DNA of 36,124 nucleotides from Nemertoderma westbladi (GCA_032718475.1 JAUCBJ010005240.1:1-36124); one strand, 5' to 3'; shown: positions 2,011 through 32,576, counted from the first letter of the stretch. Notes: generated by a model not told the origin, from the sequence alone. A program made the numbers and translations.

Positions 2011-2699
2011 AAATCTCTCATCTCGATGATATATGATTTATACCCATAGATAACGACGTATAATGCTTTTATTAATACATTTTACATATTTTACAATACG
2101 GTTTTACTGCTCCTGCTGGCACCTATAGGCCTACTGCTTACATAGGAGATATTATTCTTTGAAGTCGCCGCACTGGTATACGACTAGGCTGTTGAGATGT
2201 CTCTGTGTCCTAGGGCGCCCGCTTGTTGCGGCTGCCACGCTAAGAAAGGGCGATGCATTCGTTGCGTGTGCGTCAAACAGGGTCGCCCTTGCACGTCATG
2301 TGCCCCTTCGATAAGCAGTCTGTGCGAAAACGCGTTGGGGTCCGTTAATTCGCAGCCAAACATTTCCTTCGACGACAAAAGCGCCGATCGATGCTCTCCA
2401 TCAAGGAGTTCGACGCAGCCAATGGTTAACGTGCATTCGGGAGATGTATATATCCTAGATGAGACTCTTCTAGATTCGGACAGGACGTTAGATGGGTTTG
2501 ATAGCGTTGTCACGAGCTCTTCTCCTTCAACTACAATGAGGGCGGTTTCCCATTCTAACTCTTCCTGGATAACATCTCCCACGAAGGTAGGGAGAGATCT
2601 GTCCCCAGGCGAGGCACAGGCTCGAGCAACAGCAATACTTGACAGGGCCCGTCGTGGTAGTGAAGCAATAGCTTATCAGTCATCTTCCTTGGGTGAGGG

Positions 2700-3990
2700 A
2701 GTGTCGGAAGTTGGTTCGGTACTTCCCGTTTCTGGCGTCGGTGAGTCGGTCCCTTCGGTATCTGGGATTGGTGAGTCGGTTCCCCTAGTGTCTGGATTAG
2801 GTGAGTCGGTTTCTTCGGTGTCTGGGGTTGGTGAGTCGGTTCCTTCAGTGTCTGGAGTCGGCGAGTCGGTTCCTCGGGTGTCTGGGGGCGGTGAGTCAGT
2901 CAGTTCAGTGTCTAGAGTCGGTGAGTCGGTTTCTCAAGTGTATGGAATCGGTGAGTCGGTTCCTCAAGTGCTTGGGGTTGGTGAGTCGGTTCCTCAGCTG
3001 TCTGGAGTAGGTGAGTCGGTTCCTTCGGTGTACGGGGTCGGTGAGTCAGTTCCTTCACTGTCTGGAGTAGATGAGTCGGTTCCTTCGGTGTCCGGAGTTG
3101 GTAAGTTGGTTACTCAAGTGTATGGGGTCGGTGAGTACGTTCCTCAAGAGTCTGGAATCGGTGTGTCGGTTTCTCAATTGTCTGGAGTCGGTGAGTCAGT
3201 TCCTCAAGTTTCTGGAGCTAGTGAGTCGGTTCCTCAAGAGTCTGGGATTGGTGACTCGGTCCCTTCAGTGTCTGGAGCTGGTGAGTCGGTTCTTTCAGTC
3301 TCTGGAGTCGGCGAGTCGGTTCCTCATGTGTCTGGGGTCAGAGAGTCAGTTCGTTTAGTATCTAGAGTCGGTGAGACGGTTTCTGAAATGTATGGATTCG
3401 GTGAGTCGGTTCCTCAAGTGTCTGGGGTCGGTGAATCGGTCCCTTCAGTGTCTGGAGTCGGCGAGTCGGTTCCTCATGTGTCTGGGGTCAGAGAGTCAGT
3501 TTGTTTAGTGTCTAGAGTCGTCGGTGAGTCGGCCCCTCAAGTGTCTGGAATCGGTGGGTCGGTTCCTTCATTGTCTGGAGTCGGTGAGTCGGTTCCTCAA
3601 GTGTCTAGGGTTGCTGAGTCGGTTCCTGAAGAGTATGGGGTCAGTGAGTTGGTTCCTTTTGTGTCTGGAGTCGGTGAGTCAGTCCCTTCAGTATCTGGAG
3701 TCGGTGAGTCGGCCCCTCAAGTGTCAGGAGTCCGTGGATCGGTTCCTTCATTCTCTGGAGTCGGTGAGTCGGTCCCTCGAGTGTCTGGGGTTGGTGAGTC
3801 GGTTCCTCAAGAGTATGGTGTCTGTGAGTTGGTTCCTTCAGTGTCTGGAGTCGGTGAGTCAGTCCCTTCAGTATCTGGAGTCGATGAGTCGGCCCCTCAA
3901 GTGTCTGGAGTCGGTGGGTCACTTCCTTTGGTGTCTGTTATCAGTGTGTCGGTCCCTTCGGTGTCTGTTGGTATTGGTGTGTCGGGCACT
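2700..3990 (+). repeat. 30-bp coding minisatellite (~43 units, SGVGESVPxV)
   Basis: Repeated tctggagtcggtgagtcggttcctcaagtg variants, in frame with no stops in ORF 2197..6738. Confidence 0.95.
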
Positions 3991-5730
3991 CAAGGGTCTG
4001 AGGTCGGCTCGTCAGGGCCTCCAATGTCTGGAGCTGGCACGTGTCCAGTATGTTTGAGGGTCTTTGGAATAAAAGCCAATGGGACTCTGCGCACACATGG
4101 CCCACCTGCCAACCGGTGCCTGGGATCTAGTGTCCAGCCAGATGCTTCAGCCTCCTTGCAAGGTCCCCCCGTGCCCGTATTCCTCTCACAACCTCCACAA
4201 CATTCATCAATAATATACCATTCACTACCTTCTGGCTCTCTCACAAGTCACCACCGGTTAGACCCTCCCTCGACTAATGACTCTTACGTCAGTGACATTT
4301 TCTGTGACAGTTTACTGGACGAAACCGTTATTGCACAGAACATCACTTCCAGTACGACTCTGATTGCCCCATCATCCCTGCCGGAGGTCCCCACCCCGGC
4401 ACTCCCAGACTTCCACTCATGCACGCTCGCGTTTAACTGGAACGGTATTCCCGGTGAGGTTTACCTGAGTCGCCTCAAACTAGCATACGACGAGATAGCT
4501 CACTGGAACTCCAGTTTGTTCGAGATTCCTCGATCTCAGGCGGGTAAAGAGTTTATATCGGCGATGACTAAACTGCTAAATGCGTTTGGCGAGGGTTCCA
4601 GTATGGAGGGCTTGGCGATGTATGCAGTCATGGTAATGCCCAAATTAATGCTGCAAGCTGCGACGAGACTGGTTGAACCTGGTGGCAGTGTGAGTAAGAC
4701 TCTGCAGTGGAGGTTGGAACTATGGCGGGAAGTAAACATTGAGGAACTCTTACTTGAAGGGCGCGCTCTGGTTGCTCGCAGGAAGGGCTTCGGGAATAAA
4801 ATACACCCGGACCATTCCCGGAAGCGGTTTATTCACGCTATGAACAAAGGCCGAGTCGGCGCCACGGTAGATATCGTTGAAGATGGCACTGGTTCCAGAG
4901 TCCTTGGGATTGATGAGGAAATCGGTGGAAAAACGGTAAAGGATATTCTAATAGAAAAACACCCTGAACCGGGTCCAATAGATCCCTCTTTAATCGAAAC
5001 CTCCTGGCCAGATTCTGTAGATTTTCATCCCGCGGTCTTTGATAGCATCAATAGTGACGCTGTGCTCTCCTGTGTACTCCACTCCCACGGTTCCCCAGGT
5101 CCCTCCGGCCTCGATGCAGACGCCTGGCGATGCGCCATGACAGCCTTCGGTAATGTATCCTGCGACCTTAGGAAGGCCGTGGCAGGGGTAGTGAGGCGTT
5201 TGGCGACGGAACACATCGACTCCGCGAGTTTACTTCCCTACAACGCGAGTCGGTTAGTGCCACTCGATAAACAACCAGGGGTTCGACCAATTGGTGCGGG
5301 CGAGGTATTACGGAGGATTATTGGGAAGGTGGTCGGGAGGATAGCGAAGTTCGACCTTGGTGAGCTGGCGGGTAACACCCAACTGTGTGCGGGGCAAGTC
5401 GGTGGTATAGAACACGCTGTGCATGCCCTACGGGAACACTTTGAACAGCCTGAATGCGACGGCCTCCTTTTGATTGACGCAAAGAATGCGTTCAACGCCT
5501 TGAATCGCCGTTTAACCCTTCTGAACTGCCATGTACTTTGTCCAGTTCTCTTCACCATCCTAACCAATTCCTATCGGGAACCGTCGCCGCTTTTCGTAGG
5601 AAATGACGTTATCTGGTCGCAAGGGGGGTCAACCCAAGGGGATTCTCTGGCGATGCAGATGTTTGCAGTCGGCACATTGCCAATGGTTAAGAAACTAGAA
5701 CCTATTCTTATGAATTGCCACACGTATGTG

Positions 5731-6690
5731 GCTTCCCCCGTCCAACCTTTGGGTTCCCCCCACCAACCATCGGGTCCCCCCCTCAAACCGGCGGGTTTCC
5801 CCTTCCAACCGGCGGTTTCCCCCCTCCAACCTCCGGATTCCCCCCTCCAACCGGTGGGCTCCCCCCTCCAACCTTTGGAATCCCCCATCAAACCTTCGGG
5901 CTCCCCCCTCGAATGGGCGGTTTCCCCCCTTCAACCATCGGGTTCCCCCCACCAACCTTTGGGTTCCCCCCTCCAAACTTCGGGTTCCCCCCTCAAACCT
6001 CCGGGTTCCCCCATCAAACCTACGGGCCCCCCGCTTCAACCGGCGGTTCCACCCTCCGACCTTCGGGTCCCCACCCCCAACCAGTGGGTTCACCCCTCCA
6101 ACCATCGGGTTCCCCGCTCCAATTCTCGGGTCCCCCCCTCCAACCATCAGGTCCCCTCCTTCAACTATCGGGTACCCCCTCCAACATTTGGGTTCCCCCC
6201 TCCAACTATCGGGTTCCCTCTTCCAATCTCCGGGTTCCCCCTTCCAACCTTTGGGTTCCCCCCTCCAACCTTCGGGTTCCCCCCTCCAACAGGCGGGTTC
6301 CCCCTTCCAACCTTTGGGTTCCCCCCTCCAACCTTCGGGTTCCCCCCTCCAACAGGCGGGTTCCCCCTTCCAACCGGTGGGTTCCCCCCTCCAAGCGGAG
6401 GGTTCCCCCCTCCAACCGGTGGTTCCCCCCTCCAACTGGCGGGTTCCCCCCTCCAACCAGGGGGTTCCCCCCTCCAACCTTCGGGTTCCCCCCTCCAACC
6501 TTCGGGTTCCCCCCTCCAACCGGCGGGTCCCCCCAACAACCATTGGGTTCCCCCCTCCCAACGGCGGGTTCCAAATTCCAACAGGCGGGTTCCCCCTTCC
6601 AACAGGCGGGTTGCCCCCTCCATCAGGCAGGTTCCCCCCTACAACCACAACCGGCGGTTTCCCCCCTACAACCGGCGGTCTCCTCCACCC
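5731..6690 (+). repeat. 21-bp minisatellite (~45 units, GSPLQPx heptad) inside the RT domain
   Basis: Repeated ggttcccccctccaaccNNNN units between the QGD and YADD motifs. Confidence 0.95.
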
Positions 6691-8845
6691 AACCAGGGGT
6701 TTACCCAGACCGAGAGGCGGTTTCATCGGATCCGATGACCTTTCCGGGTATCCACAAGTGGTATGCGGATGATGGCAGCGCTGCTGGTAACCTCGGAATG
6801 CTACGTGACTATTGGGAGGAAGCGGCTACCATCGGGCCTGGCTATGGATATTACCCCACAAAGGCATTTCTTATTGTGAAGAACTCAAAGCGCGAAGAGG
6901 CCAACGCGATGTTCTCTGGCCTCCCTGTTGAAGTGGTCGATGGTCATTGAGTCCTGGGGTCCGTAATAGGGTCCACATCCTACTGTGCTGGGTATCTGGA
7001 GAAGCGAGTTGATGACATCTGTCGCCAACTAAAACACCTCAACGATTTCGCAGTGACTGCTCCCCACCCAGCTTACAGATGCCTGGTCCGTGGCTTACAG
7101 CCGAAGGTAAACTTCTTGGCTCGCACCACACCCGGGTTAGTCGGTCACTTGGATCGAGTTGAGGAAACGCTCTCCAGCACAGTCATCCCGACACTCACTG
7201 GCAGATACCCACCCGGCCTTTCGGAACGACAGCTGCTGGCACTCCCTGTGAGGGAGGGGGGGCTAGCTATAAATCAACCTCAGGATGAGGTGGAAAGCTA
7301 TGAGAAGTCGTTGCGACTCTGCGAGCCCCTACGGTGTTCGGACCCAGCCGCTCGTACAACACAGCAGACCATCCTGTGTGAGATCCGCAAGGAGCAGGAT
7401 GAGGCTGTGAAGACTCGATGTGCGGCGGTTGATGCTCAACTGTCCGGAGACGCCCTCTACCATCGGACACTGGCGAAGGAGCGTGGAGCGTCAGCATGGC
7501 TCTCGGCCCTACCCATTTCCAGATACAACTTTTCCCTACACAAATCCGCTTTCCAGGATGCGTTGTGTCTGCGATTTGGGTGGGAGCCCCCGAGGCTGCC
7601 CACCAACTGCTCCTGCGGTGCTGTATTCACCATCTCCCACTCCCTCCATTGCCCTATGGGAGCCTACCCGATCGTGCGGCACAACGAGGTCCGCGATTTC
7701 CTTGCCGAGCTCCTCCGCGAGGTCGCACACGACGTTGAGGTGGAACCACATCTCCAGCCGATCGAGGGCGAGTCTTTCCGCCTGAGATCTGCTACGGTAG
7801 ACCCGGAGGCCCATCTGGACGTTGCGGCGAGTGGGCTGTGGGGTGGGCGCTTTGAGCGGGTGTATATCGACGTCAAGGTATTCAACCCTCTGTGCTCCTC
7901 CAATCCTCGCTCCATGGATGCTGCTTACAGCAAACATGAGCGAGAGAAACGGAGGAAGTACGAGGAGAGAATCAATGACGTCGAGCACGCCGGCTTCTCG
8001 CCTTTTGTAATTGCTACAACTGGTGGGGCCAGCCCCTCAGCCCACGCGCTCCTCACACGCATTGCGCTCCTACTGTCGGCGAAACGGGACGCTCCCTACT
8101 CGCAGACTCTCTCCCTCATCAGGACTCGGTTGAGTTTCGCCCTCCTCCGTTCCTCCATCATGTGCCTCCGGGGCGCACGGAAGCCGAAGGCTAGGCTGGC
8201 AACGAGACAGACGATGCGGGAGACCGGCGTGAGCACGGCTGTAGCCGAGGCTGGGATTGCGTTAAATAGTTTCAACAATAATTATTAATTACCTACAATT
8301 TGTTGACATTAATTAATTCATTATGCTGCTTGTTTGTTAATGTTTATTTTATTTGTGATTGAAATAAAGAAATTGTTCATTTGGTTGAGAATTAATACAT
8401 ATTTTATTTCACTTCACATCCACTCTGGTCCTTTTAATACGCATACATTTCATATAAATTTAAATTTAATACCCATATATTTTATCTCATTCCATATGAC
8501 ATCCAGTCTGTCTCATAATTATTAGCAATGCCCCAATAGTGGAATATTTCTTATCTATTACAGTATATTTTTCAGTCTAACATTAAAATACAGTAATAAT
8601 TTTAATTCGGTGTAGTTTAAATGTCTCTGCTGGATTACGTATGGATTTCTAGAGAGGCGAACATCAGATAGGGATAATCCCGTAGCACCGGAGATATACA
8701 GTACATAAGATTTATTAAATTTTAATTTACAGAATTCTTAATTTTATTAAAAATATATATTTTACAATGTGTGCTTCAAATTTTACTATATTGATGAAGG
8801 ATAATACTAATATTTAAATTCAAATATCTGAATTTATGTTATTAG

Positions 8846-10203: not shown

Positions 10204-10538
10204 CATTAGCTACTACAAAAAATTTATAGAAGAAAGTAGGATGTAGGAACCATTGTCAAAATTACTAGCTAAACCTACCTAAAACACTAGCTACCATAAA
10301 ATTTAGTATCTTGCTTAACGAGGAGACTTCAATTCAGTCAAATTAAATAATTATATCAAAATATCAAACTGGTCTCTTTTTTAATGGCCTCAAAATGCAG
10401 CTTATTAGGTCGTGTATATATATTAGGCCATGGGAGCGTTATATAAAATGCTATATCTCAAAAACGGCACGACAGATTTGGAAAAAAATTTAGCAGCGGT
10501 TTTCTGTCAACCATATCAATCGTTTTATAAAATAAAAA

Positions 10539-11191
10539 TGTGACGGGATCAAGGGATCCCGACCGGGTTGATCGTTTCGTACGCGTCACCGCAGGCTGGG
10601 ATGTCACTGGTTGTTTGGCCGAGGCCGTTAGAGAAAATTGAATTGAGTTAATGCTGTTGTTCGACGGTCTGATATAATACCGATAGCACAGTTGATGTAA
10701 TGTATTAGGTTAATTAGATGCAGATGAGTAAACCGGTAATAGTGACTAAATAGCCAATGTTGTTAATGGCGATGATGACGGTGAAACAATATCGCCCGTC
10801 TGCACTGAAACTGACAACTGAGTAAACTGATTCACAAACCGGTAGCAAGTAGATAATATACGACACACCAATATTACTCTACTACTACATTACTGTGGCC
10901 TCTTACCTAGTGGATGCTATCCTTCGCCCCTATTGGCTAATAACCTACTTCACGCCTTTCACTCTATGGGAGTGTCCCCCCCCCCCCTGTTACTAGCCCC
11001 TGCTGGCTGTTTCCCTTTCCGAGGTGGATTGACCTCTAACCTCCCTTTGTGTGGCTTTGGGGTTTGTACTGTCCCCCGATGTTGGTTGTGATACGAGAAT
11101 AGTTATTGCTAATCTCGTATCTCCAACATATTGCTGAAAATGCCACTTCCCATTTTATGAGGGTAATGCGGCGGAATTGAATCCACTTACA
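10539..11191 (-). repeat. 3' LTR of BEL copy 1 (653 bp)
   Basis: TGT...ACA ends with imperfect inverted repeat (TGTGACGGGATC / GAATCCACTTACA), repeated at 24167. Confidence 0.88.
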
Positions 11192-11200
11192 CTCCCCCCC
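11192..11200 (-). promoter_or_regulatory. Polypurine tract of copy 1
   Basis: Minus strand GGGGGGGAG directly before the LTR start TGTAAG; same arrangement at 26783-26790. Confidence 0.8.
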
Positions 11201-11917
11201 ATGCTATCTTCCCGGTGGGAAGATAGCATCATCTACAAGTGCGCTTCAATGCGGAACCCGATCTACTATCGGGTGTGGGGTGGAGTTCTTTTCTTGGAGT
11301 CGGCTTTCTAGGCCGCTCCCTCTGGGTATGATATTACTACCCCTTCTTGGTGCAACCTCAACCTATGTTGCACCAAGATATCTGATGTCTCTGTTCGAGA
11401 CAATTGTGGTCTCTTCTCACTCAATTTCATATCTCCTCACTCTAAACTGACTCTAACTTCACTCTACTCTAACTCCACTCTACTCTATCTTACTCTCGGA
11501 CTTGTCTGTCCCTTACTCTGCTTCATACTGTTCGCTCCCCACACTTGAATTGCACCCGTATACTTTCCACACGCGTCAACACCTCATCTCACTATCTCCC
11601 TGCGCTCCTGTACTCAACCCTTACTCGTTTCGCTCCACTCACTCCTGACGAGCCTCACCCTCCCCTTTCATGCCGTCGCACTCAAGAAGTGTGATTCGTC
11701 TAGTGTCTCATCCTCCTGTCATAGTCAATTGGTCCCCAGTCCCAGTAGCTAGTTGGAAAAGGTTACATGACTATAGTACTTACTTTGATTATATTGATTC
11801 TAATTATACTCTATTGATTATTACATACGTACATACTAATTGCACTTTTATTAAATTTGCACGTATTACTTCGAATGTGGTGCCTTCCAGGCATCCCCAC
11901 ATCTCCTCCTCCAAGAC

Positions 11918-14525
11918 CTAGTTCGCTCCTCCCGTCTTTGGGAACCATCTCAGTTCCTTCCCTTTGTTGTCGTCCTGTCTCGGTCGCTTCCTCATTGTCA
12001 CCGCTTATTTGTTCATATCCTCCTTAAGGCTCCTCATCCTTGCCGTTACCTCCTTACTGATTCCCGTGGACGATTCTTTGGGTGCTGGTGTTATTAGCCC
12101 CGGATCGCTTCGCAGGCGGCCCTTCTGAATGCCCCTCCTGCTTTCCCCTAGTAGCGTCCCACAAGATCATCTTCATGGCCGCCGGCAGATGCTCCGCCAG
12201 GAAATCTATGAACTCTCCCCTGTTCTCTGGCACCCATCTATCTAAATACCTCTGCGTATTGATCACTCCACCATACGATGCTGCAGTCGCTACTTCTTGA
12301 TAAGTAAACGGAAGTCTCTGCTTAATGATTTCCAGGTGGGCCTCCTGGTTAATATTAAGAAACTCCACCGGAACTCCTGGGCCTTCATTAACTGCCGCGT
12401 CATGACGCCGACATCGGCCCACTCCTCGAAGATCTTAAACTTCTCCTCATTGTCCATCCAGTCGCACTGGCGCCCGTAGTGCCCCCGGAAGTTACACTTA
12501 GAACACCGGTTGTGCAACCGCGGACACGCCCCCATCCTATGACTCGACTCGCGGCAGTAGAGGCAACTCGTCCCCTTCTGGAATCGATACAAGCAGCTCT
12601 TTTCCTGGTGAGTAAGCCTCCCGCAGTAATTGCAGCCGTGTATCAACGCATCCCGCCCCAAGTCGTCTTTTGCCCCAAGCGATCTCCTGGGTCTATGGAG
12701 CCATTGGTAAGCAAACTTCTGGACGTTAATGTCTCTATCCATATCTACGTCCTCGTCTTGCCCCGGCATCGTCTCTCCGAACACTACCTTACCTGTGGTG
12801 CCGTTCCCAGTTGCTCGCCCAACCTGATGGTGCTCCCCGCGAAATCCATCGCCGGCTCCTCATGCACCCAGGCCCGCTTGCCGGGTTTATCCCAGAAGGC
12901 CCTCGCCCCGCTGGCCGTCACCACTCTCCCGCCAACCCAGTCCGTGTCTGAGTGGCCGATCCTCTCGATGGGTGGCATCTCCCCGAACTCGTCGTCATCC
13001 TCGTCTCCCGCTGGGAGTGGATCCAATCCCGGTATCCCGGCAGACCCACTGAGTCCCTTCCCACCTTGGCTCTTGCCCATAACTTTCCATCCTTCCAGTT
13101 CTCTTGGTCTCTTTCTCGCGAAATCGCACTCAGAGCCCGCTGGCATGGGTATCGCTTGAAAACCTGATGTCGACTGTTTCGGCGATTCTTCGGTCCATCC
13201 TAGCTCCTGCCCCAGAGACTCGCCCGAGCTCCCTGATCCCCACCGTAACTCATCCAAGTTCTGGGCCTCAAACCCATAGTCCTCTCCTCTAGCTTCCACC
13301 TCTCTTTCATCTGCCTCCCTCCTTTCTCGTCTGGCGATTTCTTCCAATCGCTTCTCCTCTAGTCTATCCGCCTCTAGCTTCTCCCACCTCTGATATGGTG
13401 TATCCACCTCCCTGTCTACTAGATATCGGCAGTTGTAGTATACCGACTCAACCTTCAGTCCCGGGTGGTCTGCCAGACCCTCGAAGGCCACCTTGAAGGC
13501 TCTTCTGTAGTTCAGGGGTGATCCTGACAGCAGAAAAGCCGTTGTTCTCTTCCGATAGCCACGGCCATGAATAGGTTTAGTAAACCTATCATTATCCAAT
13601 CCTCCTGCAGGATATATTTCTTCTGATATATCTTTATCGCTCCTCTCCGGAATTGATACACCTCCTGTTTCCCTGGCCTCGCTCCCCACTTCAGCGAGTT
13701 CACCAACTCCGCTCCGTACTCCTCCCTGAATTTACCCCAGTCCATCGGCTTGTGGCAGACGAGCCCCATGAGCTGACCCATCGCCACTGCGCCGCAATGT
13801 CCTGTGTTCTCTACTAATCCCAACCCGGCTGGCCCTGTCATGGCCATGTAGACCGTTTGCATGTCCAGGAGGTTGGGGGTCTCCAGTCCGACGATCCTCT
13901 CCGCATTGTCGCGGATCGCCGATCCCACCTTCATAGTCGACTTCTCACTTACTAGGTTCTGCACCGCCCTTAGCAACCGGTTCAACTTCGGCCCGCTCTT
14001 CTTCCTATACATTTCCAGATCGAACAGGAATATGTTCCCATTTGGCGCAGCCAAATGCAGAAGTATCATTCTGGCCGACCCCGCCGACCCTCTTCTCAAA
14101 CCCTCGTCATCTTCCACGGTCCCTTCGTCGTCCAGGACCATGTATCCTCCCCTGCTGACGGACTCTACGAACCTCTTCCAGTCCTTTCTCGGTGGTTCCC
14201 TCGGATACTTCGGTATCCCAGACTTCGCCTCGTCTCCCTTCACTACGTAATGGAAATGTTTGAGGATCGCATTGTCTAGCGACGGCGTCCCATAGGTCCT
14301 GACCAGCAGCCTCTCGTGCACCTCCCTGAAATTGTCCTGCAGCGCTCGCGCCTTGTGACCCTTCTCTAACCGCTCGTAGTATCCCCTCGTCTTCTCCTCC
14401 GGATGCCTCTGGGTGAAATATACTAGTATCTCCTTTCCACCTCTTTCCGCCTTTCTCTTTCTGACAAGTCTCTCCACCATTTCGAACACTCCCGATCGCT
14501 CACCTACAAGGTGGTGCCTTACCAT
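11918..14525 (-). pseudogene. Extra ORF of BEL copy 1: DEDD-type 3'-5' exonuclease domain plus three CCHC zinc knuckles (~870 codons, frameshifted)
   Basis: Pieces 13512..14525, 12784..13689, 12290..12784 and 12054..12422 join by comparison with copy 2. Motifs MVLDDEG, ILLHLA...IFLFDL, KVGSAIRD(N/D), LLDMQ, KWGARP, QKKYILQED; knuckles CNYCGRLTHQEKSC, CLYCRESSHRMGAC, CSKCNFRGHYGRQC; ends ELRWFPKTGGAN*. Confidence 0.8.
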
Positions 14526-14969
14526 GGCTCAAAGTAGATGAGTGATGTAGTTAGGATGGTCTGTGCGGTCCGATAATGGCCTATCTCTCTCAGAACACTT
14601 GGTTTTTACACTATATTTGCCTATGTACCACCTAAAGTGCTAAATTTTTCTAAATTCCCTAAATCTGTCAGTTGCTTTTATTATGTTCTACAATTTCCTA
14701 CCTACTGTTACTATAATTTATTGAATTTTAATTTAATTATAATTTTTAAATCTATTACTGTGCTATCAATACTCATAATGGATTATTTGTTTAAATAACC
14801 CCTATGGTTTGCATACAGGGTAGACTAGCTATTCCCTACTATGCTAGTCTGCACCAGGTAACCTTTTGGCCCTGTATCAAACATTCTGACCTACTCTACG
14901 GGCTGTGCAGTACAGTAGTATGTCTCGTGCAGCCAACACAGTCTGTCCTGCTGTACCCATGACCCTCTC

Positions 14970-15560
14970 ACTTCTTACTACTAACCCTACTAACTCTCTA
15001 ACTCTACTAACTCTCTAACTCTTACTAACTCTCTAACTCTTACTAACTCTCTAACACTTACTAACTCTCTAACCCTTACTAACTCTCTAACACTTACTAA
15101 CTCTCTAACTCTTACTAACACTCTAACTCTTACTCCACTAACGGTACTATGTACCCTCTTACCCTCTAACTCTTACTAACTTCTACTAACGGTACTGCGT
15201 ACCCTCTTACACTCTAACTCTTACTAACGGTACTACGTACCCTCCTACTTTCTAACTCTAACTCCACTAACGGTACTACGTGCCCTCTTACCCTCTAACT
15301 CTTACTAACTTCTACTAACGGTACTGCTTACCCTCTTACACTCTAACTCTTACTAAATTCTACTAATGGTACTGCGTACCCTCTTACACTCTAACTCTTA
15401 CTAACTTCTACTAATGGTACTGCGTACCCTCTTACACTCTAACTCTTACTAACTTCTACTAACGGTACTGCGTACCCTCTTACACTCTAACTCTTACTAA
15501 CTTCTACTAACGGTACTGAGTACCCTCTTACTCTACTAACTCTTACTAACTTCTATCTGC
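14970..15560. repeat. Tandem repeats in the pol / extra-ORF spacer (~18-bp units merging into ~45-bp units)
   Basis: (ctaactcttactaactct)n followed by units containing aacggtactgcgtaccctcttacactct. Confidence 0.9.
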
Positions 15561-15723
15561 CTACTTACTTACTACTACGTACTATCTACTATTACTTTCT
15601 CTTTCTAACTTTCTAACTTTCTTTCTACTTTATTTTATTTTTATTTTTTTTTATATTTTGTGTGGGAAGGGCGTCTCGCCCTCAATCCCACCCCCCTCAG
15701 TCCAACACTTGGACGACTAAACT

Positions 15724-18700
15724 CTATGGTGCCCCTTCTAACAGGCAGCATTTCCCTACAGCCCTCCTGTAGGTCTTCCTGTCCTTTGCTCCTATCTTAC
15801 CCCCTATCCGCACTTCCACCGATCGGACTCTTCCGTCGTCGTCGGGGTAAGTGTCAACTACTCTCGCTAGCCTCCACTGATTGTTGATGATTGTGTCGTT
15901 GGTGACGATCACTAAATCACCTTTCTTTAACTCTCTAGTGGTGTTTCTCCACTTGCTCCTCCTGTGTAATGTGGGTAGGTATTCCTCGACCCACCTCCTC
16001 CAGTACTCTGCGCTTATCGCGTTGGCGACTTTCCAACTCTGTCGGGAGTGTATGTCATCTGGGTCTACACCCCGCATGTCAATGGTCGCCGGCCTTTCCA
16101 TCAGAAATTGGCTCGGCGTTAGCACGTCTAGTGATTCCGGGTCGTCATTTTCTGGATATAGTGGTCTGCTATTGATGATTCCCTCACACTTAGCTAGCAC
16201 TGTCCTTAGTATGTCCTCTGTTACCATGTGGCTGTTCATCAACTTCGTCATCAGATGCTTGGAACTACCCACAAGCCTCTCGACACATCCTAAAGTATGC
16301 GGCGCATACGGCGTCCTCCTTTCCCACTTCACCTGTCGTCTCCTCATGGCTGCTCTGACCTCTTCTCCTTCTAGGATGTCAAGGCCTCCGCCAACTCGTT
16401 CTCTGCTCCCACAAAGTTGGTTCCATTGTCGGAATAGATCACTGCGATTGTCCCACCTTTGCAGTCTCTGAATCTCTCTAAGGCATTGATGAATGCCGAT
16501 GCCGTAGCATCCTGGGCGAGTTCTATTCCTACCGCCCTCGTGTTGTTACATACGAAGATGATGCCGTAGCGTTTCTCTATGTGTCGCATCACCTTGATCT
16601 TAATCGGCCCGAACATGTCTACGCCGCAGTGCGTGAATGGCGGCTTGAGCTGTCTCACCCTAATGGCCGGTAATGGCACCATCTCCTGTACGGCCCGCTC
16701 CTTTCTCGTTCGTCGGCAGGTCTGGCACTGCCCCACTACTGCCTTCACCTTCTTTCTTAGCTGCGCGATCCAGAAGGTCCTCCGTATCTCTGTGAGGGTC
16801 TGGTTGGTGCGTCCGTGCAATATCAACTTGTGGGAGTCTGAAATAATCTGGTGGACTATCGGCGATTGGTTGGGGATGATAATGGGTTTTGGTGGAATGA
16901 TAAGGCTGTTGTTATTCAGCACTCTGGAATTCATCACCAGAATCCCGTCATCGTTGAGTTGTGGCGACAGCGTGATGAGCTCGCTGTCCCGACAAAGATG
17001 TTGTTGTTTGCTAACCCGATCCACTTCGTCGCCGTAGTTCCTTCTTTGTTCGTACCGTATCACGGCCTTAGCCGCTCCCTCCAGATTGATGTTTGGTTTC
17101 CTCTTGGCGTCCTTGCCAACTCCCTTGAGGAAATCCCCGTAGGCCCTCCAGTATGCTACCAACTTCTTGGTCTTGTACCAGCTTGAGCTGTAGCTGAGCA
17201 GCTTATCCGTCGGGTTATCGCATGGCTCTTCTAATTTCGGTTGCACCTCCCTGACTTCCCTCACCATCTGACTATATATCTCTTCACCTTCTGAATCTTC
17301 TCCTTCTCCCTCTTCCCCTGGTGCTACTTCCTCTTAACCCGGGTCCACCTTCTTCATTGGTGGCCAGGCCGATCTATCGTTCAGGAAGTGCAGCCCGTGT
17401 TGCCACAACACTTCCTTCTTTGAGAAAGTTTGGTGTGCCACGCCCCTCGATAACAAGTCTGCTGGGTTCTCGTCCGTTGGGCAGTAGTGTCACCTTTCCA
17501 AGTCTGTCGTCGCCCTTATTTCGTCCACCCTATTTGGACGAATATAGGGTATCTCGTCTTCTCATTGTGTAGCCACCCGAGCACTACCATGCAGTCCCTC
17601 CAGTAGTGTGTCTCCACTATGTTGGGTATTGCCTCCATCAAGTAGGCTGTGGCCCTTACTCCTAATCTTGCAGCTGTCAACTCGAGTTTCGGGACTGATG
17701 CTGAATCCGGCAGCGTCGACTTTGCTTTACTGAATGCAAGTCTGGGCTTATGAGCCCCCTTTCGCTGTACTAGGTAGAGTGCCGCTCCGTATACTTCCAA
17801 TGATACACACGTGGCATGCTGTACATCCCCATCTGTTCTAAACTCCCCGTCCACTTACTCCATTGCTTACTGATTTCTTCCGGGGCCTCTGTATCCCACT
17901 CGTCCTTTAACTTATATACTTTCTTAAGTATCTGTTTCCCCGTGACTAACAGTGGGGATGCTAGGCATGAGGGATCGTATATCCTTGGTATGTACGATAC
18001 ATAGCCCCTATTTGTGTGGATCTCCGCGCCCTCCTGGCTCAGTTGGTACTTGAACTCGTCTGTCTCCCGGTTCCACACGATCCCCAGCGCCTTCTGCTGA
18101 GACTCCACTCTCTTGTCCACCATGTCCTGTCCCTTGGCTGTTGTGGGGTTGTCCATGGTCGACTCTGGCCGCCTGTCCTCTATGGCTTTCATAAACTCCT
18201 CTGAGCAGGATTCAAACTTGGTCAGGTTAAATCCAGATCCTTTCAGGATGTCGCGAACCTCGAGCCCTGTGTCCAGTAATTCTTTAACCGTGTTCCCAGA
18301 CTCCATCCCGTTGTCTACATAGAAGCCGCGTCGAATCATATCGATCACTTTCACGCTATACCTCCCCTCTTTCCTCTCTACAGTATCTCTTACAGCCACA
18401 GTCGTTGTGAATGAGGACGACTTGGCCCCCATGTTCTGCACCACCATCTTGTACATTGGTATTACTGACGGCTCCTCATCGCTGTTGTACCATAGGAAGC
18501 GCTGGCTGTCGCTGTCCTCCTCCGTCCCATGGACTTGGTTGAACATGCCTTCGATGTCGCAGGTGAAGGCGTGTCTCCCATTTCTAAATCTCAATAAGAC
18601 CTCAATCCCCAAGTTGTAGATATTGGGGCCCTCCAGCAGATAGTCGTTTAGGCTTTTGCCATTGGTTTTCGCCGATGCGTCAACCACCATCCGCTGTTTA

Positions 18701-21700
18701 CCCTTCTTTGGGTCTAAGGCCACATGAAGTGGCAGGTAGTAGGTCCTGTCCGTGTTCGGTTCATCGACCGGCAACTCCACGGCCCATCCTTTCTCGACGT
18801 ACTTCTTTATTGTCTTATGGATGTACTCATCCTTCTCGGGGCTCCGTTTCAGCGTTTTCTTCAGTTTGCGAAGCCTCGTAAGTACCATCCTCTTGTTCTC
18901 GGGTAGCGGAAGTTTTGGCTGTTTCCACACCATGCCTATGGTGTACTGCCCCTCGTCGCATCTCATCGACTCCTTCACACTCTGTACTGCTTGTTTATCC
19001 TCTACCGAGGTTCCAACCCCGGTCTCCTTTAGTCCCTCAAAATCCTGTCTCAACAGTCTCTTCAGCTGCTCCTCCGCTCCTTCATCTTCCATCTCCCTCA
19101 TAGTTCCCGCGAACATGCACCCTGATGTCTCCGATATCCTAAATGGAATTTTGGTTTTAATTGGGCCGCTCAGCGTCTATCCAAATGGTGTGAGAATTGC
19201 CATTGGATCGCGCTGTCTGTCTTCCCCGAAGATCGTCTGTATTCTTTCGTGGGCCGTCGGGCAGTCCATTCCCACTATGATGGATACCTTCCTGACATCC
19301 ACCTCCGGTATCGAGAAATCGATGTTGTCCAGGAATCTGTATTGCTCGACCTCGATGTTGGTTGGTCGCCTGGCGTTTATGTTGATCGATTCTATTACCT
19401 GGATGGGGTCAATGGTCGCCCCATAGTCACATCCCGGTGCTATCGCTGATATCTCGCACCTTCCCGTCCTCATCTCCAGGACCTCATCTTTGCTGGAGAT
19501 GGTAGTTACTGCCATCCTACTTGGCCTCGTTTTTAACCCTATCTCCTCGGCCACCCAATTCTCCACCAATGTGAAGGCTGCTCCGCTGTCGACCAGCATC
19601 AAAGTAGTAACTGATCGACCGCCTTCTCCTATCACCCTCACTGGCACTACCCCGAGTAGTACCGTTCCCCTTCTCTTTGCTCCTACGGTGCTTGTCGCCA
19701 TTGTCTGTCCTTTGCCTTGACCGAGCTTAATTGGTGTTTCTTTGCATTGATCAGATTTGTGTCCGCCTGCCACACATCGATGACAGATTCCACTCTTCCT
19801 TGCGTATTCTACCTGATCTTGTTTGGGCAACGCTTGCCAGTACCTGCAGTTCATGGTCTGATGAAGTGCGTTCGAATGCAATTGGCATTTGTTGTTTGGA
19901 TTATAGCTGTCCCTATACAGTGCGCTGCGTGTCGCACTCACATTCGTACCTAGTTCCCTACTGTTCTTATTGTTTGGGTTTGGCCTACTGGGCGTGTTGG
20001 GGTTATATTTGTTTGTGTTGTTATTTAGCCCCTGTCCACTCCATGGTGTGGCCCTACCCCCGGCTATATGTGGACTAGCAGTCCCCTGCATCGATGCGTA
20101 TGGCAGCGATTGTCTAAGCTTTGGTAATGCATTTGCCGTGTTGTGTTCCGGTTTCAGCCTGTTATATTCGGTCTTTGGCGCTGAGGAAGTTCGAAATTTC
20201 CTCTAGGCCCGGTTCCGCACCTTTCTTCTCCCGGGTGGAGAAGGCGATCTTTCTCCATTTATTGGGCAGCCAGATCGGCAGTGCCTGTGCTATCGTGGTG
20301 ATATTATTAGATGCATTGAGCTCGTATGGTGCATCTAGTGTTTTCAGCACGATTAACGCCTTTTCGACCTTGGTCGCGAAGGTCTTTATGCTAACAGGGT
20401 TATCCTGTAGGCCACCCGATGTTATACCCCTTAAGGTCTGCCGGATGATCTTGGCAGGGTGTCCGTATTCCCTGTCTAGGCCCCGCCATGCAGTCGTGAA
20501 GCCACCCTCGATGCCCTGATACTGCCTCACGATGTTGTACGCTGGGCCTCCTGTGTATACTTGTAGATATTTTAGGCACTCCGCCTGCATCAGGTATTTA
20601 GTTAATATTTTGTTGCTGTACATGCGTCGGAATTGTAGGTATTCTTCCGGCCTGCTTCCATCGAATTTAAATGGCTCTACTGGTGGTAATTCGATCCTGG
20701 TCTTGAGCACATCGATAAGTGTTGCCATTCCCATTGCCTGTGCTTCCAATGGGTTCGAAGGATGTTGTACAGATTCTCCCGTTGGGTGCGGTCCACCCAT
20801 CCGGCCTGTTGACTTTCTTTGCGTCGGATATATCATTGGGGGTAACGGCCCCCTCCATATCTCTGTGTCGCAAGATCTGTTCTCGTCCAGGGGGTTTGAT
20901 GTTCTTTGTCCTGTTTGGGTGTATTGTTGATATTGTAATGGGGGAATGTCACCCTGCCCCCCCCCCCCCCCCCCCCACCGGTGGTATGTTTGGTACTGGA
21001 GTTGATGTTAATATATTGGGGCCCATACACCTATCCGCAATAACTCTCCCCTCCCCTGGATATATGTTATGTCCCTGCATATTATAGTCATACTGCTGTG
21101 CTGGTACCGGTATAGGCCTATCCACTTCTTGCCTACCTACCGGTATATACGCCGCGACTTACGGATCTAATCCCGTTGTTCGCGCTACCCTATCGCCTAC
21201 ACTATCTCTCCCAGCATGGCTTATAGTATGTGCAGTAAGGCCTAAAGTATGTCCTGCAGTCTGTATGTGTCCTTCCGGACCGAAGTTTAACCTTCTCGAA
21301 TAGTCCAAGAAGTCCTCCCCGCAACTACCGTACTCTCGATCGGCAGCTATGTCCCGTCGGGAAGTTTCCCTTCGATGCGCATTTAAATTTAAATTATTTG
21401 AATTACTTTGTGTATTTGAATTTAAATTATTATTTGAATTATTTTGTGTATTTAAATTCGGGTTATTTGAATTATATTCTATATTTAAATTAGGATTATT
21501 CGGATTTAAATTATTATTACTGGGCAAAATATTATTTCCTGCAATGAAAGTTTGATTAGGGTTGTCTACTACGGTACTATTAATATTAATGCCTTCTGAC
21601 GTATAATTATTACCCCCCCCCCCCCCCCCACCCCCCCACCCGTACGGTTACACCAGTTTTGTATCTGTCGTCCGGTCCCTGTAAGTGGGGTATAAACAAA

Positions 21701-21850
21701 CAAACGTTTCCATTACTTCTGGCTCCTCGTAAATACTACCCGAGCCAGCCTCACTCTCAGATAATCCCAATTGCACCAGTTCTAGTAGGTGCTTCTGCTT
21801 GGCCTGATATTGCATAAGCCCCCTTAACCGGGGAATGCATATCATCCCGC
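15724..21850 (-). pseudogene. BEL/Pao gag-pol polyprotein (Gag, Zn knuckle, aspartic protease, RT, RNase H, integrase), broken by stops and frameshifts
   Basis: Gag ELPPVEPFKFDG...QF; CHRC...H...C; LVDSGA; LTPFG(W>stop at 19177); YYLPLH, RMVVDAS, DIEGMFNQV, QRFLW, FYVDN; KALGIVWN, YDP, PKLELTAA; IN CGVDMFGP, SDNGTNFVGA, VERLV, INSRPL, LTPSQFL, WRRWVEEYL. True start not determined. Confidence 0.93.
21380..21530 (-). repeat. AT-rich degenerate repeat encoding an Asn-rich tract in the Gag N-terminal region
   Basis: ORF 21159..21527 begins NNNLNPNNPNLNIEYNSNNPNLN...; absent at the equivalent position of copy 2 (~35855). Confidence 0.75.
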
Positions 21851-21864
21851 ATACGCTTTCCTGC

Positions 21865-22040
21865 TATCTCTCTCTTTCTATCCTCTCGTAAACTCTGGTT
21901 CGCTAGCTCTGTTTCTCTCGCCACCCGCTCTCTACGCTCGTTCTCTACTCTCGTCTCTCGCTCTTTACGCTCGTTCTCTACTCTCTTCTCTAGCTCTTTA
22001 CGCTCTTTACGCTCCTTCTCTACTCTTGTCTCTCGCTCCC
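21865..22040. repeat. Pyrimidine-rich tandem repeat
   Basis: Several copies of ctctttacgctcgttctctactct variants. Confidence 0.8.
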
Positions 22041-22839
22041 CGGGTTGAGAATCTTATCATATTAGTAAATTACTACCTAATGGCAAGGTACTGGCATGAT
22101 AATTTTACTAAATTTTTACAATTACCACATTTTGCATTATTTGTTAAGGAATTAAAAAATACTTGCCAAGTACAGTATAGATTTTAAGAAATATTTGGGT
22201 AGGCACTTATTATGCAATGCACTTACCAAATTCTTAACAAATTTTTTATACCTACTGTAGAACATACTTTCGGTGACTTTATAACTTGACAAAAATTTAA
22301 TAAGAACTTTAGTGGTGCTTGACACGCATTGCGGTTAAAAATCAGTCACATGATCCACTGCCAATAAATGACTCATTCAGTCATTATTGTGGTCAGTAGG
22401 CCTACTGCAGAGTTGCGTTTATTGAGGTTTCTTTATTTACGTTTAATTGCTTAATGAGTTTTGCTTACTGAAATAAATAGTGTATAACGTTTTGTATAAC
22501 GTTACTTTAATTTATACTGGTAGTTTTATTTCTGTTTGTTTACTTCAATTCAATTGTTTATTGTATTTTGTACTCTTTAATTCTGTAATTGTTTATCGAG
22601 TTTTGTAATCTTTAATTGTTTAGTGCCTTTAGTATTTAGTGCTTGTTTTGTTTATTTGTTTTGTTTGTACTGTCTATATTGTTAATGAAATATTTATGGT
22701 TTGCCTAATTGTCTGATTGTTGCTAATTGACAATTTAATTGAATTAATGCCTAATTGATACAATTAAAATTGAAATTATTTGAATGTTAGTGAAATTTGA
22801 TTAATAACAATTGAATTTGGAAGAATTGGAATATAAAAA

Positions 22840-23660
22840 AGGCCTCATAATCCAAAGACATATAATGAACTCCGTGATGTTGTTGGGGATCTGGCCTCTC
22901 TAGCATTTGGTCCACGAAACGTGACAGTCTGAACCCATAGTCAGAGACCAGCCTGGAAAAAGTGGAGAGGCAGGACTTTGGTGTGATGTAGGAGTTCCAG
23001 GGGCATTCAACCCGCAGATTGCGTTGTTAGATATCAGGGTCGTAAACCTTGACGCCGAGTCGTATGCGGGACGCCCCCCGATGAGGGTCCTAGAATCTGT
23101 GGAGGACGCTAAAACCGCACTATATGTGGAACCAGCGAGACAGAGGAGAGCGGACTTTGCACCCTTCGTAGTCTCTTGTCTCTCCGTAGAATGGAGTTCT
23201 GGCACCGCATGCCAACAAGCTCCCGAGGATCTTCGCTGATAGGTTACACCACAACTGGGACAGACCTTATAGCACCGTCATGGAATGGGTTCGCCGCCGT
23301 GTGCAGTTCGCATTCGCCATAGTTCGAGGGGCTTCTCATTGCATCAGGGGGTCGAGGCTAAAGTTGCGCAAAATGCGCAGTGGTCTGGGTACGGAGGATG
23401 GAGCTGGATTGCCGATCACTCCACTCGTCTGATGCTGTAAACTGAATCTGTAAACTATGTACTATGTACGTACTAAACTATGTATGTGCTTTCTCTTATT
23501 TGTATATGTGCTAGTTTTTGGAATTATAGTTACTGTAGGTTCTTGTAAAACTCTCAGAGTATAATATTAATTGTAATTTTGCTTTATATTATATTATTGT
23601 TAAAGCGGTTTCATTGTACTAAACGGGGGTTTGGCAGCGGCAGCTCCCAATAAAAAATAA
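22840..23660 (+). mobile_element. 5'-truncated CRE-type non-LTR element (endonuclease end plus 3' UTR), a different family from 2197..8288
   Basis: Frameshifted RH-NELRD, EPIVR, CDVGV, LLDIRVVNLDAESY, FAPFVVS, PYSTVMEWVR, HCIRGSR, stop at 23430-23432; A-rich tail near 23650. Confidence 0.8.
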
Positions 23661-24166
23661 CAAAATGAAGATAAAAAAGTAGACTTACTTTAAAAATATT
23701 TTCCCTGATTTTTTATTCTGTTTTTCCAGAAATTTTCCCAAGGAAACAACCATCTTTTCTCACCTACACCGGGTAGTACCGGTAACGAAATTGTAAAAAA
23801 ATGCCCTAAAATTCAACTAGACCACTACTGTAGCGCTTGATAAGATTACAAATTTGAATTAAATAGTTTTATTGCATAAACAGAAATGAGGAATACCATT
23901 TTTTAACTTTTTGGATAAATTTTTCCGACGTAACTGTGTTTTAGTGTAGACCTACAGTATTTACGCATTTAGATCTGATGTGTATAATAATGTAATAATA
24001 TGTTTGTTGATATGTTGTTTTTATTAAAAACATTAATAGTCTCTGTATTAATTTGTTTACATATGCCATGGGGGGGGGGGGGGGTTACACAGGGCTCTCT
24101 ATCACTCATCTTTGCTCTATCTCTTCCTGGCAGTCACAGTTTGTAGTGTTCTCGGGATTGTTTCAC

Positions 24167-24682
24167 TGTGACGGGATCAAGGGATCCTATTTGGTTAATT
24201 AGATGCAGATGAGTAAACTGGTAATAGTGACTAAATAGCCAATGTTGTTAATGGCAACGATGACGGTGAAACAATATCGCCTGTCTGCACTGAAACTGAC
24301 AACTGAGTAAACTGATTCACAAACCGGTAGCAAGTAGATAATATATGACACACCAATATTACTCTACTACTACATTACTGTGGCCTCTTACCTAGTGGAT
24401 GCTATCCTTCGCCCCTATTGGCTAATAACCTACTTCACGCCTTTCACTCTCTGGGAGTGTTTCCCCCCCCCCCCCCCCTGTTACTAGCCCCTGCTGGCTG
24501 TTTCCCCTTCCGAGGTGGTTTGACCTCTAACCTCCCTTTGTGTGGCTTTGGGGTTTGTACTGTCCCCCGATGTTGGTTGTGATACGAGATTAGTTATTGC
24601 TAATCTCGTATCTCCAACATATTGCTGAAAATGCCACTTCCCATTTTATGAGGGTAATGCGACGGAATTGAATCTGCTTGTA
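24167..24682 (-). repeat. 5' LTR of BEL copy 1 (~140-bp internal deletion, damaged outer end)
   Basis: Matches 10539-11191 with few substitutions; lacks ~10560-10700; ends gaatctgcttgta instead of gaatccacttaca. Confidence 0.85.
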
Positions 24683-25410
24683 TGATACTTTTGTCCTTCT
24701 GTCTATATTTAGTTTTCTATGTATCACCCCATCATCATTATGATGATCTCAGGACATGCGTAGAACATAGTCAACCACAATTATGAACAAGAATGGTGCA
24801 AGTGTGTCTCCCTGGATGACGCCCCATAACACTTCAAATGGTTCTGTGTCACCGTCAACAGTAGTCGAAAACAAATGTAGTCGAACCATCGAATAATGAT
24901 ATGATTGCTGCAATAATTACATCAGGAATCCCATATAATGAAAATATGCTGAACGAGCGAGAGACTGAATCAAAGGCCTTGAAGAAGTCAACAAAGATAA
25001 CAGCCAAGTGCCTGTCTTTCTTTTTTGAAAACTCTACAATATATCCTTCTAAGTGGCAAAATGGTCTCCATGGTCACACGACCTTTACGGAACCCATTCT
25101 GATTTCCACGAAGCAGTCTCTCAATGGGATCCCTGATGCGATTTAATAGAATCCTATTGTATAGCTTTGCAACAATCGATATCAATGAGATTCCCCGAAA
25201 AGAACCAAAGAATGTTAGGTTACCCTTCTTGGGAACTGGCACCAACTTATTTGTTTTCATTTCTTGTGGGACTCTTGTTGTTCTGTACATGTCTTCTAAG
25301 ATGGGATAGATGAGCTTTAAACACTCAGGTATTTTAAAGACCTCAGGAGGGACACCATCTATTCTACTGGCACGATTGGTCTTAATACTCTTTGCAGCAG
25401 CTTCGTCAAG
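24683..25410 (-). pseudogene. RTE-type LINE reverse transcriptase fragment
   Basis: VPVPKKG...RGISLISIVAKLYNRILLNRI...QNGFRKGR; then FVDFFKAFDSVSR and GVIQGDTLAPFLFIIV by manual translation; cut off by the LTR before YADD. Confidence 0.85.
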
Positions 25411-26479: not shown

Positions 26480-26782
26480 GGATGCTTTCCTATCTTTCCC
26501 CACATGCTCCCTTGCCCGCTATTGGCTTATATACTAATTGTCACTTTGGCACTCCCTGTAGGTGTTACCCCCTGCCACTAGCCTCGACTAGCTGGGTACT
26601 CCCTCTGAGGTGGTTTGACCTCTCACCTCTCTTTGTGGCTTAGGGCGTGTGTCGCCCCCCCCCCCCCCGAGTTGGTTATGGGGCAAGATTATTATTGGTA
26701 ATCTCGTATCGCCAACTATATTGGTAAAATGCCACTGGTCCCATTTTAGGGTAGAGAATGAAGGGAATTGAATCCGCTTACA
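26480..26782 (-). repeat. Recognisable part of the 3' LTR of copy 2
   Basis: Diverged match to ~10915-11191, ends gaatccgcttACA followed by PPT complement; outer end not identified. Confidence 0.7.
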
Positions 26783-27509
26783 CTCCCCCCATGCTATTTT
26801 CCCGGTAAGAAAATAGCATCAACCTTAAGTGCGCTTCAATTCCACTGGAACCTAATCTAATATCGGGTGTGGGGTGGAGTTCTTTTCTCTGGGTCGGCTT
26901 TCCAGGCCGCCCCACCCCCCCCTGGGTGTGTTATTACTACCCATCCTTGGTGCAATCGCGAGCTATGTTACACCGAGGTATCTGGTGTCTCTGTTTGAGA
27001 CTATTGTGCTCACTCTCCACACAATTTTCCTTTAACCTTACTCAAATCTTCCTCATGGACCTTGCTGTCCCTTCTTCTCTCACCAGTCCCTTGGGACTCA
27101 TCCTCCCTCACTGCTCGCTCTCCACACTTGAATTGCACATCTTTCACTTCCTCACACCTCTATGTACCCTCTCTGCACTTCCCCCGATTCCCCTGTACTG
27201 AACCGATATTTTGATTCGTTTTCCGTTCCCTCCTGTCAGGCTCCCACATTCTTATCAGTGCGGCCGCACTTGAGAAATGGGATCCGTCTAATGTCTAGTC
27301 CTCCTGTCGTAGTCAAGTGGTCCCCAATCCCAGTAGCTAATTGGAAGAGGTTATATGACTACAGTACTTACATTGATTATATTTTGATTATTAATTAGTT
27401 ATTTTACATACGTACATACCAATTGCACTTAATTATTTGCACTTAGGAGTTCGTTATTTACCCTACATGTGGTGCCTTCCAGGCACACCCACATCTCTGT
27501 CCCTGAGTT

Positions 27510-31643: not shown

Positions 31644-32134
31644 CTAATTGGTGGGGCCTTACAAAGGCTCAATTTGGATGAGTGCCATTAAACAAGGTGT
31701 TCTGTGTTCCGTTCAGTAATGGCCTACCTCCTAGATTATAATTCCTTTCTATATTTTCCAAATATACCTTCCCAAAGTGCAAATTTTCTTAATTTCGAAA
31801 TTTAGTCAGTTACTTTAATTATGATTCTAGAACTCCCTCCTTCCAGTTGCTATAATTTATTAAATTTTATTTTTAATATCAGTTATTTTTCCCTCTCCCT
31901 GTGCTATTAACAACTGTCAGTGGGTTATTTAACTTAGATAACCCCTCTACTTTGTATACAGGGAAGACTAGCTATAATTTTACTACTCTAGCTTCTTACG
32001 AGACAGCTTTCTCGTCCTGTAACAAATAGCCTATACTTAGACTACGGGCTGTGTGGTACCGTAGTCTGTCTCGTGCGGCCTACACGGTCTGTCCTGCTGT
32101 ATCCACATGCCCCCCCTTTTCAACTTCATGGTGC

Positions 32135-32465: not shown

Positions 32466-32576
32466 TATTTTATTATTTTATTATTTTGCTTGTTTTATTT
32501 TTTGTTTTTATGTGTGGGAAGGGAATCTTGCCCTAATTTCCACCCCCCTCAGTCCAATATATTAGACGACTAAAGT

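Follow-up and report, generated by a model that had tools for sequence, protein, structure and literature searches.

A BEL/Pao LTR retrotransposon in a 36,124-nucleotide stretch of Nemertoderma westbladi DNA (the window) was found to carry, downstream of pol, a separate third gene, here called ORF3, which is not Env-like and which has evolved under purifying selection. As far as its sequence can tell, the N-terminal half of the encoded protein is very probably a derivative of the DnaQ/WRN-like exonucleases, and it is followed by a charged linker and three zinc knuckles. What such a protein would do for the element can be proposed only tentatively, the trimming of short RNAs being the reading that we prefer.

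Copy 1 of the element spans 10539-24683 (minus strand, 14.1 kb), and the genes, LTRs and priming signals of both copies described below lie on this same strand. The initial annotation had placed the pol stop at 15724 and a further same-strand ORF between this stop and the polypurine tract (PPT) and 3' LTR, an anatomy that we confirmed, and its assignment to BEL/Pao is borne out by Pao-type Pfam domains above cut-off and by the protein matches of the reverse transcriptase (RT). The gag-pol part of copy 1 (15724-21850) consists of frameshifted pieces carrying DUF1759, protease, RT (YVDN), Peptidase_A17/RNase H, integrase and DUF5641, the last in the ORF that ends pol (15724-16545), and the domains above the Pfam cut-off (DUF1759, Asp protease, Peptidase_A17, Integrase_H2C2 and DUF5641) follow the canonical gag-PR-RT-RH-IN order. 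Among the 78 proteins matched by the RT piece, 76 carry PF05380 (Pao peptidase) and the other two PF03564 (DUF1759), the top matches being 32-33% identical. In an RT tree, a quick version of 74 rows built without an outgroup or named reference elements and omitting matches too short for the region, the element is at most 34% identical to every one of its 73 relatives, has a long branch and falls in no starred clade, hence no sub-clade was assigned.

The 3' LTR (10539-11191, 653 bp, TGT...ACA) has edges at which the contigs of one DNA run show loose ends (10539 and 11192), and is adjoined by a PPT recognised by its sequence (11192-11200); copy 1 therefore has both the LTRs and the PPT of a BEL/Pao element. 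The 5' LTR (24167-24683) has an altered start and is about 140 bp shorter, and the two LTRs differ at 11 of 481 aligned bases, or 15 of 489 if the altered start is counted. Because of the missing 140 bp, and because no target-site duplication was visible around copy 1, its pairing with copy 1 is likely rather than proven. A decayed non-LTR reverse transcriptase fragment (24700-25410, minus strand; RVT_1, E 4e-7) adjoins this LTR. An AT-rich stretch of about 2.3 kb, either a long leader or a nested insertion, lies between the primer site and gag (21900-24160, minus strand), and the N-terminal region of gag (21159-21647, minus strand) contains an Asn-rich tandem expansion with units of 33-36 bp. 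Tandem repeats with 18- and 48-bp units also occupy the spacer between pol and ORF3 (14988-15555), the array of copy 2 being found at 32136-32417.

The second copy (26568-35859) has 74-80% DNA identity to the first and has lost most of pol, retaining gag, protease and the integrase end (32429-35859); at 32793-33597 (minus strand), where RT and integrase are missing, its protease frame continues uninterrupted through some 270 additional codons, for which copy 1 has no match. Elsewhere in the window a long ORF was observed on the plus strand (2188-8288), reading 1516 aa in one frame and a further 445 aa in another. It contains 30-bp and 21-bp tandem arrays within the coding sequence and had no Pfam match, and we take its C-terminal piece to resemble the final part of a CRE-type non-LTR retrotransposon, with its zinc knuckle and restriction-like endonuclease. 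Rfam and ARAGORN gave no matches.

ORF3 of copy 1 (11918-14525, about 865 codons) covers 869 codons by span from the ATG at 14525 to the stop at 11918, and 863 residues can be read with X placed at the breaks. The position of the gene and its length of some 870 codons had thus been annotated correctly; the breaks in its frame had been understated, as copy 1 is divided into five frame pieces by frame changes near 13545, 12795, 12358 and 12100, with a stop at 12007. In copy 2 (27510-31635) the same gene is affected by indels near 31635, 31365 and 29010, by stops at 28673, 28268 and 28079, and is split by an insertion of 1.57 kb that has TTAA ends (29071-30643). The two copies have no lesion in common, which indicates that the ancestral ORF3 was a single ORF of about 865 codons. 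The insertion itself is non-coding; it has CCCT...AGGG termini, a TTAA at each junction and 163-bp repeats in its interior, and a related copy, 85% identical, is found at 841-1974; from these hallmarks it is presumably piggyBac-like.

Copy 2 has no equivalent of the ATG at 14525, whereas the ATG at 14480 (Met16) is shared by the two copies, so the protein may begin at Met16. Just before this shared ATG, splice-like signals (GTAAGG and TAG|GTGAGC) are kept in both copies (14480-14530 and 31620-31665, minus strand), and these may mark a spliced ORF3 message. ORF3 occupies the same place in both copies, after pol and before the PPT and 3' LTR, and its synonymous divergence (dS 0.95) is like that of gag (0.96) and protease (1.06), which indicates that it diverged together with the element. 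On the grounds of these two copies, their shared position and a dS like that of gag, ORF3 is counted as the element's own gene. That it lacks a signal peptide and other Env-like features, as initially annotated, was supported by tests of hydropathy, sequons and Cys content: the maximum 11-residue hydropathy in the first 50 residues is 0.76, short of an Env signal peptide, there are no N-x-S/T sequons and only four Cys outside the knuckles, and the sole hydrophobic stretch, at residues 311-333 (1.67), corresponds to the ExoIII helix, so that there is no C-terminal membrane anchor.

The two copies differ at 457 positions in ORF3, 280 of these being third codon positions, and dN/dS is 0.11 (95% bootstrap 0.09-0.14, 789 codons), an estimate that comes, like those below, from one pair of copies about 20% diverged. 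Wrong-frame controls gave 1.20 and 1.95, and in the same pair of copies gag has a dN/dS of 0.08 and the protease region of 0.14. Within ORF3 the value is 0.17 for the basic N-terminal region (residues 1-105, 14211-14525), for which no Pfam match was found, 0.11 for the nuclease-like domain, 0.15 for the linker and 0.07 for the knuckle region. The last 175 or so residues (11918-12463) are also conserved, with 83% and 72% amino-acid identity between copies, and had no convincing match in Pfam or in the ESM Atlas (best Atlas score 0.90, 152 features). The family to which the element belongs is abundant and varied in the DNA of one organism: with a likeness of at least 80%, the region 10400-16000 is matched by 10,469, 6,314 and 6,838 contigs in three public DNA runs (two samples), with depth in all 30 bins across the region, and by 100 contigs in a fourth, all four being from that organism and the contig numbers not amounting to a copy number. 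No RNA run was among those listed for the region, which carries no information on expression.

The exonuclease-like domain (13548-14189) contains the motif series that had been claimed for it, namely D132/E134, KVGSAIRD(N/D), LLDMQ, WGARP, Q301 and Y304, with the key residues placed by alignment at 14132 (D132), 14126 (E134), 13907 (N207), 13616 (Y304) and 13604 (E308). In an alignment with WRN-like proteins (14 members) both copies are colinear over the domain, including D132, E134 and the two strands that follow, and K-V-G-x-x-I-x-D-(D/N), the LDMQ strand, Q301, Y304, E308 and W310 are all in register. The ExoI D-x-E follows a hydrophobic strand in both copies, though two larger alignments place ExoI on a second D-x-E seven residues further on. 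At position 207, in ExoII, copy 1 indeed has Asn where copy 2 has Asp; a CpG origin for this Asn, with the site as CpG in copy 2, was considered and is not borne out by the sequence.

ExoIII, which is preceded by a 30-residue insert relative to the family, had been described as deviating from Y-x-x-x-D. This holds, since Y304 is kept with Glu308 at Y+4 in both copies, but in the register of the family alignment the acid position is nevertheless filled by this Glu, while Trp310 aligns with the family Trp, giving a D-E-D-E catalytic signature. As the Glu is present in both copies it is a trait of the lineage rather than the decay of one copy, and the domain is accordingly filed as a DEDD derivative and not as a canonical DEDDy enzyme. 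The earlier doubt over catalysis is therefore upheld with regard to the fourth acid, and of the two copies only the second has the ExoII Asp.

Evidence that this domain is of the WRN/EXD type comes from several comparisons. A profile dominated by stand-alone PF01612 proteins of Bacteroidota genomes, a family picked after the lead, has solved WRN, Mut-7 and EXD2 domains as its leading PDB matches and can therefore represent the WRN/EXD group. With a profile of 134 Bacteroidota WRN-like exonucleases, none of them a window sequence, copy 1 obtains 9.8 bits and copy 2 13.5 bits, scores that none of 1000 shuffles of either copy reached and that make the two copies the top two of 216 ORFs in the window. 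The per-target P values (2.6e-5 and 1.8e-6) correspond to about 0.6 and 0.04 at the scale of a Pfam-sized library. Whole-domain glocal z values are 6.0 and 7.4 for the two copies (0 of 150 shuffles), and most of the motif-wise signal is carried by ExoII (z 6.6-6.7), ExoI (1.8 and 2.5) and ExoIII (1.8 and 1.9) being marginal on their own, with 5-16 of 300 shuffles reaching them. Comparison with the WRN-like family by hhalign gave 83.8% and E 7.9e-6 over 64 columns. Most feature hits in the ESM Atlas (24 of 30) belong to the set of a "Werner syndrome-like exonuclease" cluster, which scores 0.94 with 176 of 256 features and has PF01612 on 38% of its members; two unnamed fungal clusters also adjoin. 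For scale, a score of 0.9 was attained by 4-10 of every 100 shuffled proteins.

Direct searches with the exonuclease part gave no matches in Pfam, NCBIfam or PDB sequences, none at E 0.001 among 1.84 billion representative proteins, none among 6371 candidates from longer proteins and nothing in a phage tblastn and a viral scan; neither copy scores with a 26-sequence PolA-exo profile, and none of the proteins of the 78 pol relatives scores with the WRN-like profile. Two metagenome loci (L001 and L002, out of 81 candidates; one 42-residue match) were dropped, L001 being an unrelated bacterial ORF. The Pfam and structure checks proposed at the outset thus gave a divided result: Pfam was blank, an unguided structure model (pLDDT 35.5; best fold-search Z 5.8, helical pieces) was uninformative, and a model guided by 14 WRN-like rows (pLDDT 63.6) matched DnaQ-family chains with Z up to 12.9 (rmsd 3.0, 149 aligned). 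Neighbours of the guided model at Z 12.9-11 are diDNase, WRN, RNase D, Nibbler, TbRND and EXD1, with Egalitarian also among its fold neighbours, and Foldseek places TbRND first (E 3e-5); as the alignment steered the model, this partly circular result speaks for compatibility with the DnaQ fold only.

The three CX2CX4HX4C knuckles were found as annotated, with exact motifs in copy 1 starting at 12634, 12565 and 12505 (residues 629, 652 and 672; region 12464-12634), while in copy 2 two are intact and one is broken by a stop. Over 30 shuffles, a shuffled window contained 0.07 such motifs on average; the zf-CCHC_4 match is weak and below cut-off (E 0.0066), and those to the LIN28 and TbRND knuckles are also weak (E 0.035-0.044). 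The linker that precedes them (12640-13547, about 300 residues) is, by its composition, charged, as had been noted, and rich in Gly, Pro and Ser.

Taken together, our preferred reading, put forward tentatively and with somewhat more doubt than conviction, is that ORF3 encodes an accessory, knuckle-tethered nuclease that trims the 3' ends of short single-stranded RNAs, most likely the host's silencing small RNAs. The protein would be made from its own, probably spliced, message, since ORF3 is a separate ORF about 1.2 kb after pol. By analogy with TbRND, in which the fingers raise both binding and cleavage, the three knuckles would grip short single-stranded RNA, and the WRN/EXD-type domain would cut the held RNA back from its 3' end despite the Glu at the fourth acid. 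Silencing small RNAs are suggested as the target by the env-like position of the gene and by the roles of Mut-7/Nibbler and EXD1, which act in small-RNA pathways according to the available part of the rotifer study discussed below (PMC5408684).

Of the other explanations, the one that survives best, though we regard it as rather unlikely, is that the domain derives from the DEDD nucleases but has little or no catalytic activity and serves as an RNA- or protein-binding scaffold, a localisation adaptor or a decoy for host factors of the Mut-7/Nibbler/EXD1 type, with the knuckles binding RNA. The ExoIII Glu of both copies and the insert before it are consistent with this, EXD1 and Egalitarian appear among the (circular) fold neighbours of the guided model, and Maelstrom and EXD1 are described, in the part of the source available, as inactive DEDD derivatives that retain RNA binding (PMC5408684). 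Against it, copy 2 has, over a dS of 0.63, retained the Tyr as well as acids in each of the four metal-ligand places. Pseudo-nucleases usually lose the metal-ligand acids. The rotifer ORF3s, moreover, which have a comparable Asp to Glu swap (DEED), are read as possibly active in the same portion of that source (PMC5408684).

Less probable still is a role of the nuclease in maturing the primer of the element itself. The ten bases directly after the 5' LTR (24157-24166), at the position of the primer-binding site, do not start with TGG as a typical tRNA-complementary site does, and are instead the exact complement of LTR positions 24275-24266 (10790-10781 in the 3' LTR), in the orientation needed to copy U5. 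The site resembles a self-priming signature like that of Tf1. Shuffling the LTR 5000 times produced a match of at least ten bases on 8 occasions, and among 2201 leader 10-mers there are 6 with a match in the real LTR; by these two controls the chance of such a match is about 0.002-0.003. Candidate TATA and TCAGT initiator motifs lie farther upstream within the LTR (24315-24293). Under this explanation the transcript would fold, the LTR 10-mer would pair with the primer site and be nicked, ORF3 would trim the 3' overhang to the duplex edge and RT would then start. The centroid fold, which pairs 8 of the 10 primer-site bases, agrees with it, but the fold is not unusually stable (z -1.21), the minimum-energy structure does not contain the full helix, and the argument depends on a single readable primer site in one copy. 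Tf1, furthermore, reportedly uses the RNase H of its RT for primer maturation, and a separately made protein would need a route into the particle. A broader picture, possible but held with slightly more reserve than the RNA-trimming reading, would combine a deep-branching BEL/Pao lineage, tRNA-free self-priming and a knuckle-guided 3'-5' RNA trimmer of the element's own, used either for finishing the primer or for chewing back host piRNAs or siRNAs.

A role on DNA, whether in trimming or proofreading cDNA ends or in removing cytoplasmic single-stranded DNA by-products that alert the host, appears distinctly improbable. The best-fitting profile is WRN/EXD2-like, with solved WRN exonucleases at the top of its PDB search, and CCHC knuckles are known to bind single-stranded DNA as well; ORF3, however, has no RT fused to it, it goes unscored by the PolA proofreading profile and the precedent for a nuclease with knuckles is RNA-directed. 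Of the three roles originally suggested, cDNA proofreading has the least in its favour, given the missing RT fusion and knuckles that are indicative of RNA. That the N-terminal half is not of the DnaQ family at all, its motif series being a chance resemblance in a gene of another kind, would fit the blank library-scale searches and the uninformative unguided model and fold search, but is very improbable given motifs that are colinear over 200 residues in the right strand and helix context, targeted tests that beat every shuffle and an Atlas result independent of the alignment.

The question to which the case speaks is how animal retrotransposons resist small-RNA silencing. If the broader picture given above is true, the element would be a case of a retrotransposon carrying an active enzyme for small-RNA counter-defence or for primer maturation. 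The case extends nuclease cargo to BEL/Pao, with selection on the gene as strong as on gag, and the RNA-binding module suggests a specific assay, while the abundance of the family in the DNA runs of one organism may make it feasible to obtain natural intact copies and data on small RNAs. A second hypothesis, separable from the first, is provided by the LTR-complementary primer site.

In comparison with known systems, the element shares with the Belpaoviridae its LTRs, PPT, gag-PR-RT-RH-IN order and Pao-specific Pfam domains, and differs in its length of 14.1 kb, its non-Env third gene and its LTR-complementary primer site, the ICTV profile describing elements of 4.2-10 kb with gag, pol, sometimes env and an 18-nt tRNA primer site (PMC8742986). 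The domain resembles those of the WRN exonuclease/EXD2/Mut-7 (Nibbler) group (PF01612) in motif order and spacing, in its K-x-G-x-x-I-x-D-D ExoII and in its Q-x-x-Y-x-x-x-acid-x-W ExoIII, and differs from them in being only 15-25% identical, in the ExoIII Glu, in the 30-residue insert and in lying below Pfam detection. A search covering openly accessible papers found no nuclease ORF in BEL/Pao, although an annotation could be present in Repbase, Dfam, subscription journals or supplements: by word search "exonuclease" does not occur in the available main texts of a further BEL/Pao reference, de la Chaux and Wagner 2011 (PMC3118150), or of PMC13524379 and PMC8556966, and the accessible text of PMC6338049 uses it once, citing the rotifer paper among others.

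Juno and Vesta are Ty3/gypsy-like elements. The precedent named in the initial annotation proved real, as the accessible part of the study by Rodriguez, Kenefick and Arkhipova (2017) describes a DEDDy ORF3 in the Juno and Vesta LTR retrotransposons of bdelloid rotifers and in Terminons (PMC5408684). Like the gene described here, the rotifer ORF3 is separate, non-Env and placed after pol, has a domain of the RNase D/WRN group with one Asp changed to Glu, and has been given the same candidate roles with, in that part of the paper, no function demonstrated and no clear link to copy number; its signature is DEED in contrast to D-E-D-E, its hosts are Juno and Vesta and not BEL/Pao, and a Cys-His-Cys motif is reported for two families with no mention there of a triple CCHC knuckle (PMC5408684). 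These descriptions suggest that the nuclease may have been captured independently in BEL/Pao and in the rotifer elements.

The claim that a nuclease-plus-knuckle cassette is new stands for BEL/Pao, where no other case was found in the papers searched, but not in general, as TbRND (Trypanosoma brucei RNase D, PDB 7c42) is a cellular precedent in which, according to the part of the source available, a DEDD domain is followed by tandem zinc fingers that boost RNA binding and the 3'-end trimming of small RNAs, both binding and cleavage of RNA falling sharply once the C-terminal zinc-finger domain is deleted (PMC7797062). TbRND, however, is a cellular enzyme described there as having four fingers and a 28-residue linker, whereas ORF3 has three knuckles some 300 residues away and additional N- and C-terminal regions, and the 16-18% identity of the two in structure alignments with the guided model is not evidence of orthology. 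Nuclease ORF3s in the rotifer Ty3/gypsy elements and nuclease-plus-knuckle proteins in trypanosomes are therefore already known, and the novelty of the present case lies in its host, a BEL/Pao element, in a domain of the WRN/EXD type with D-E-D-E, in the joining of this domain to three knuckles and in the selection measured on the gene.
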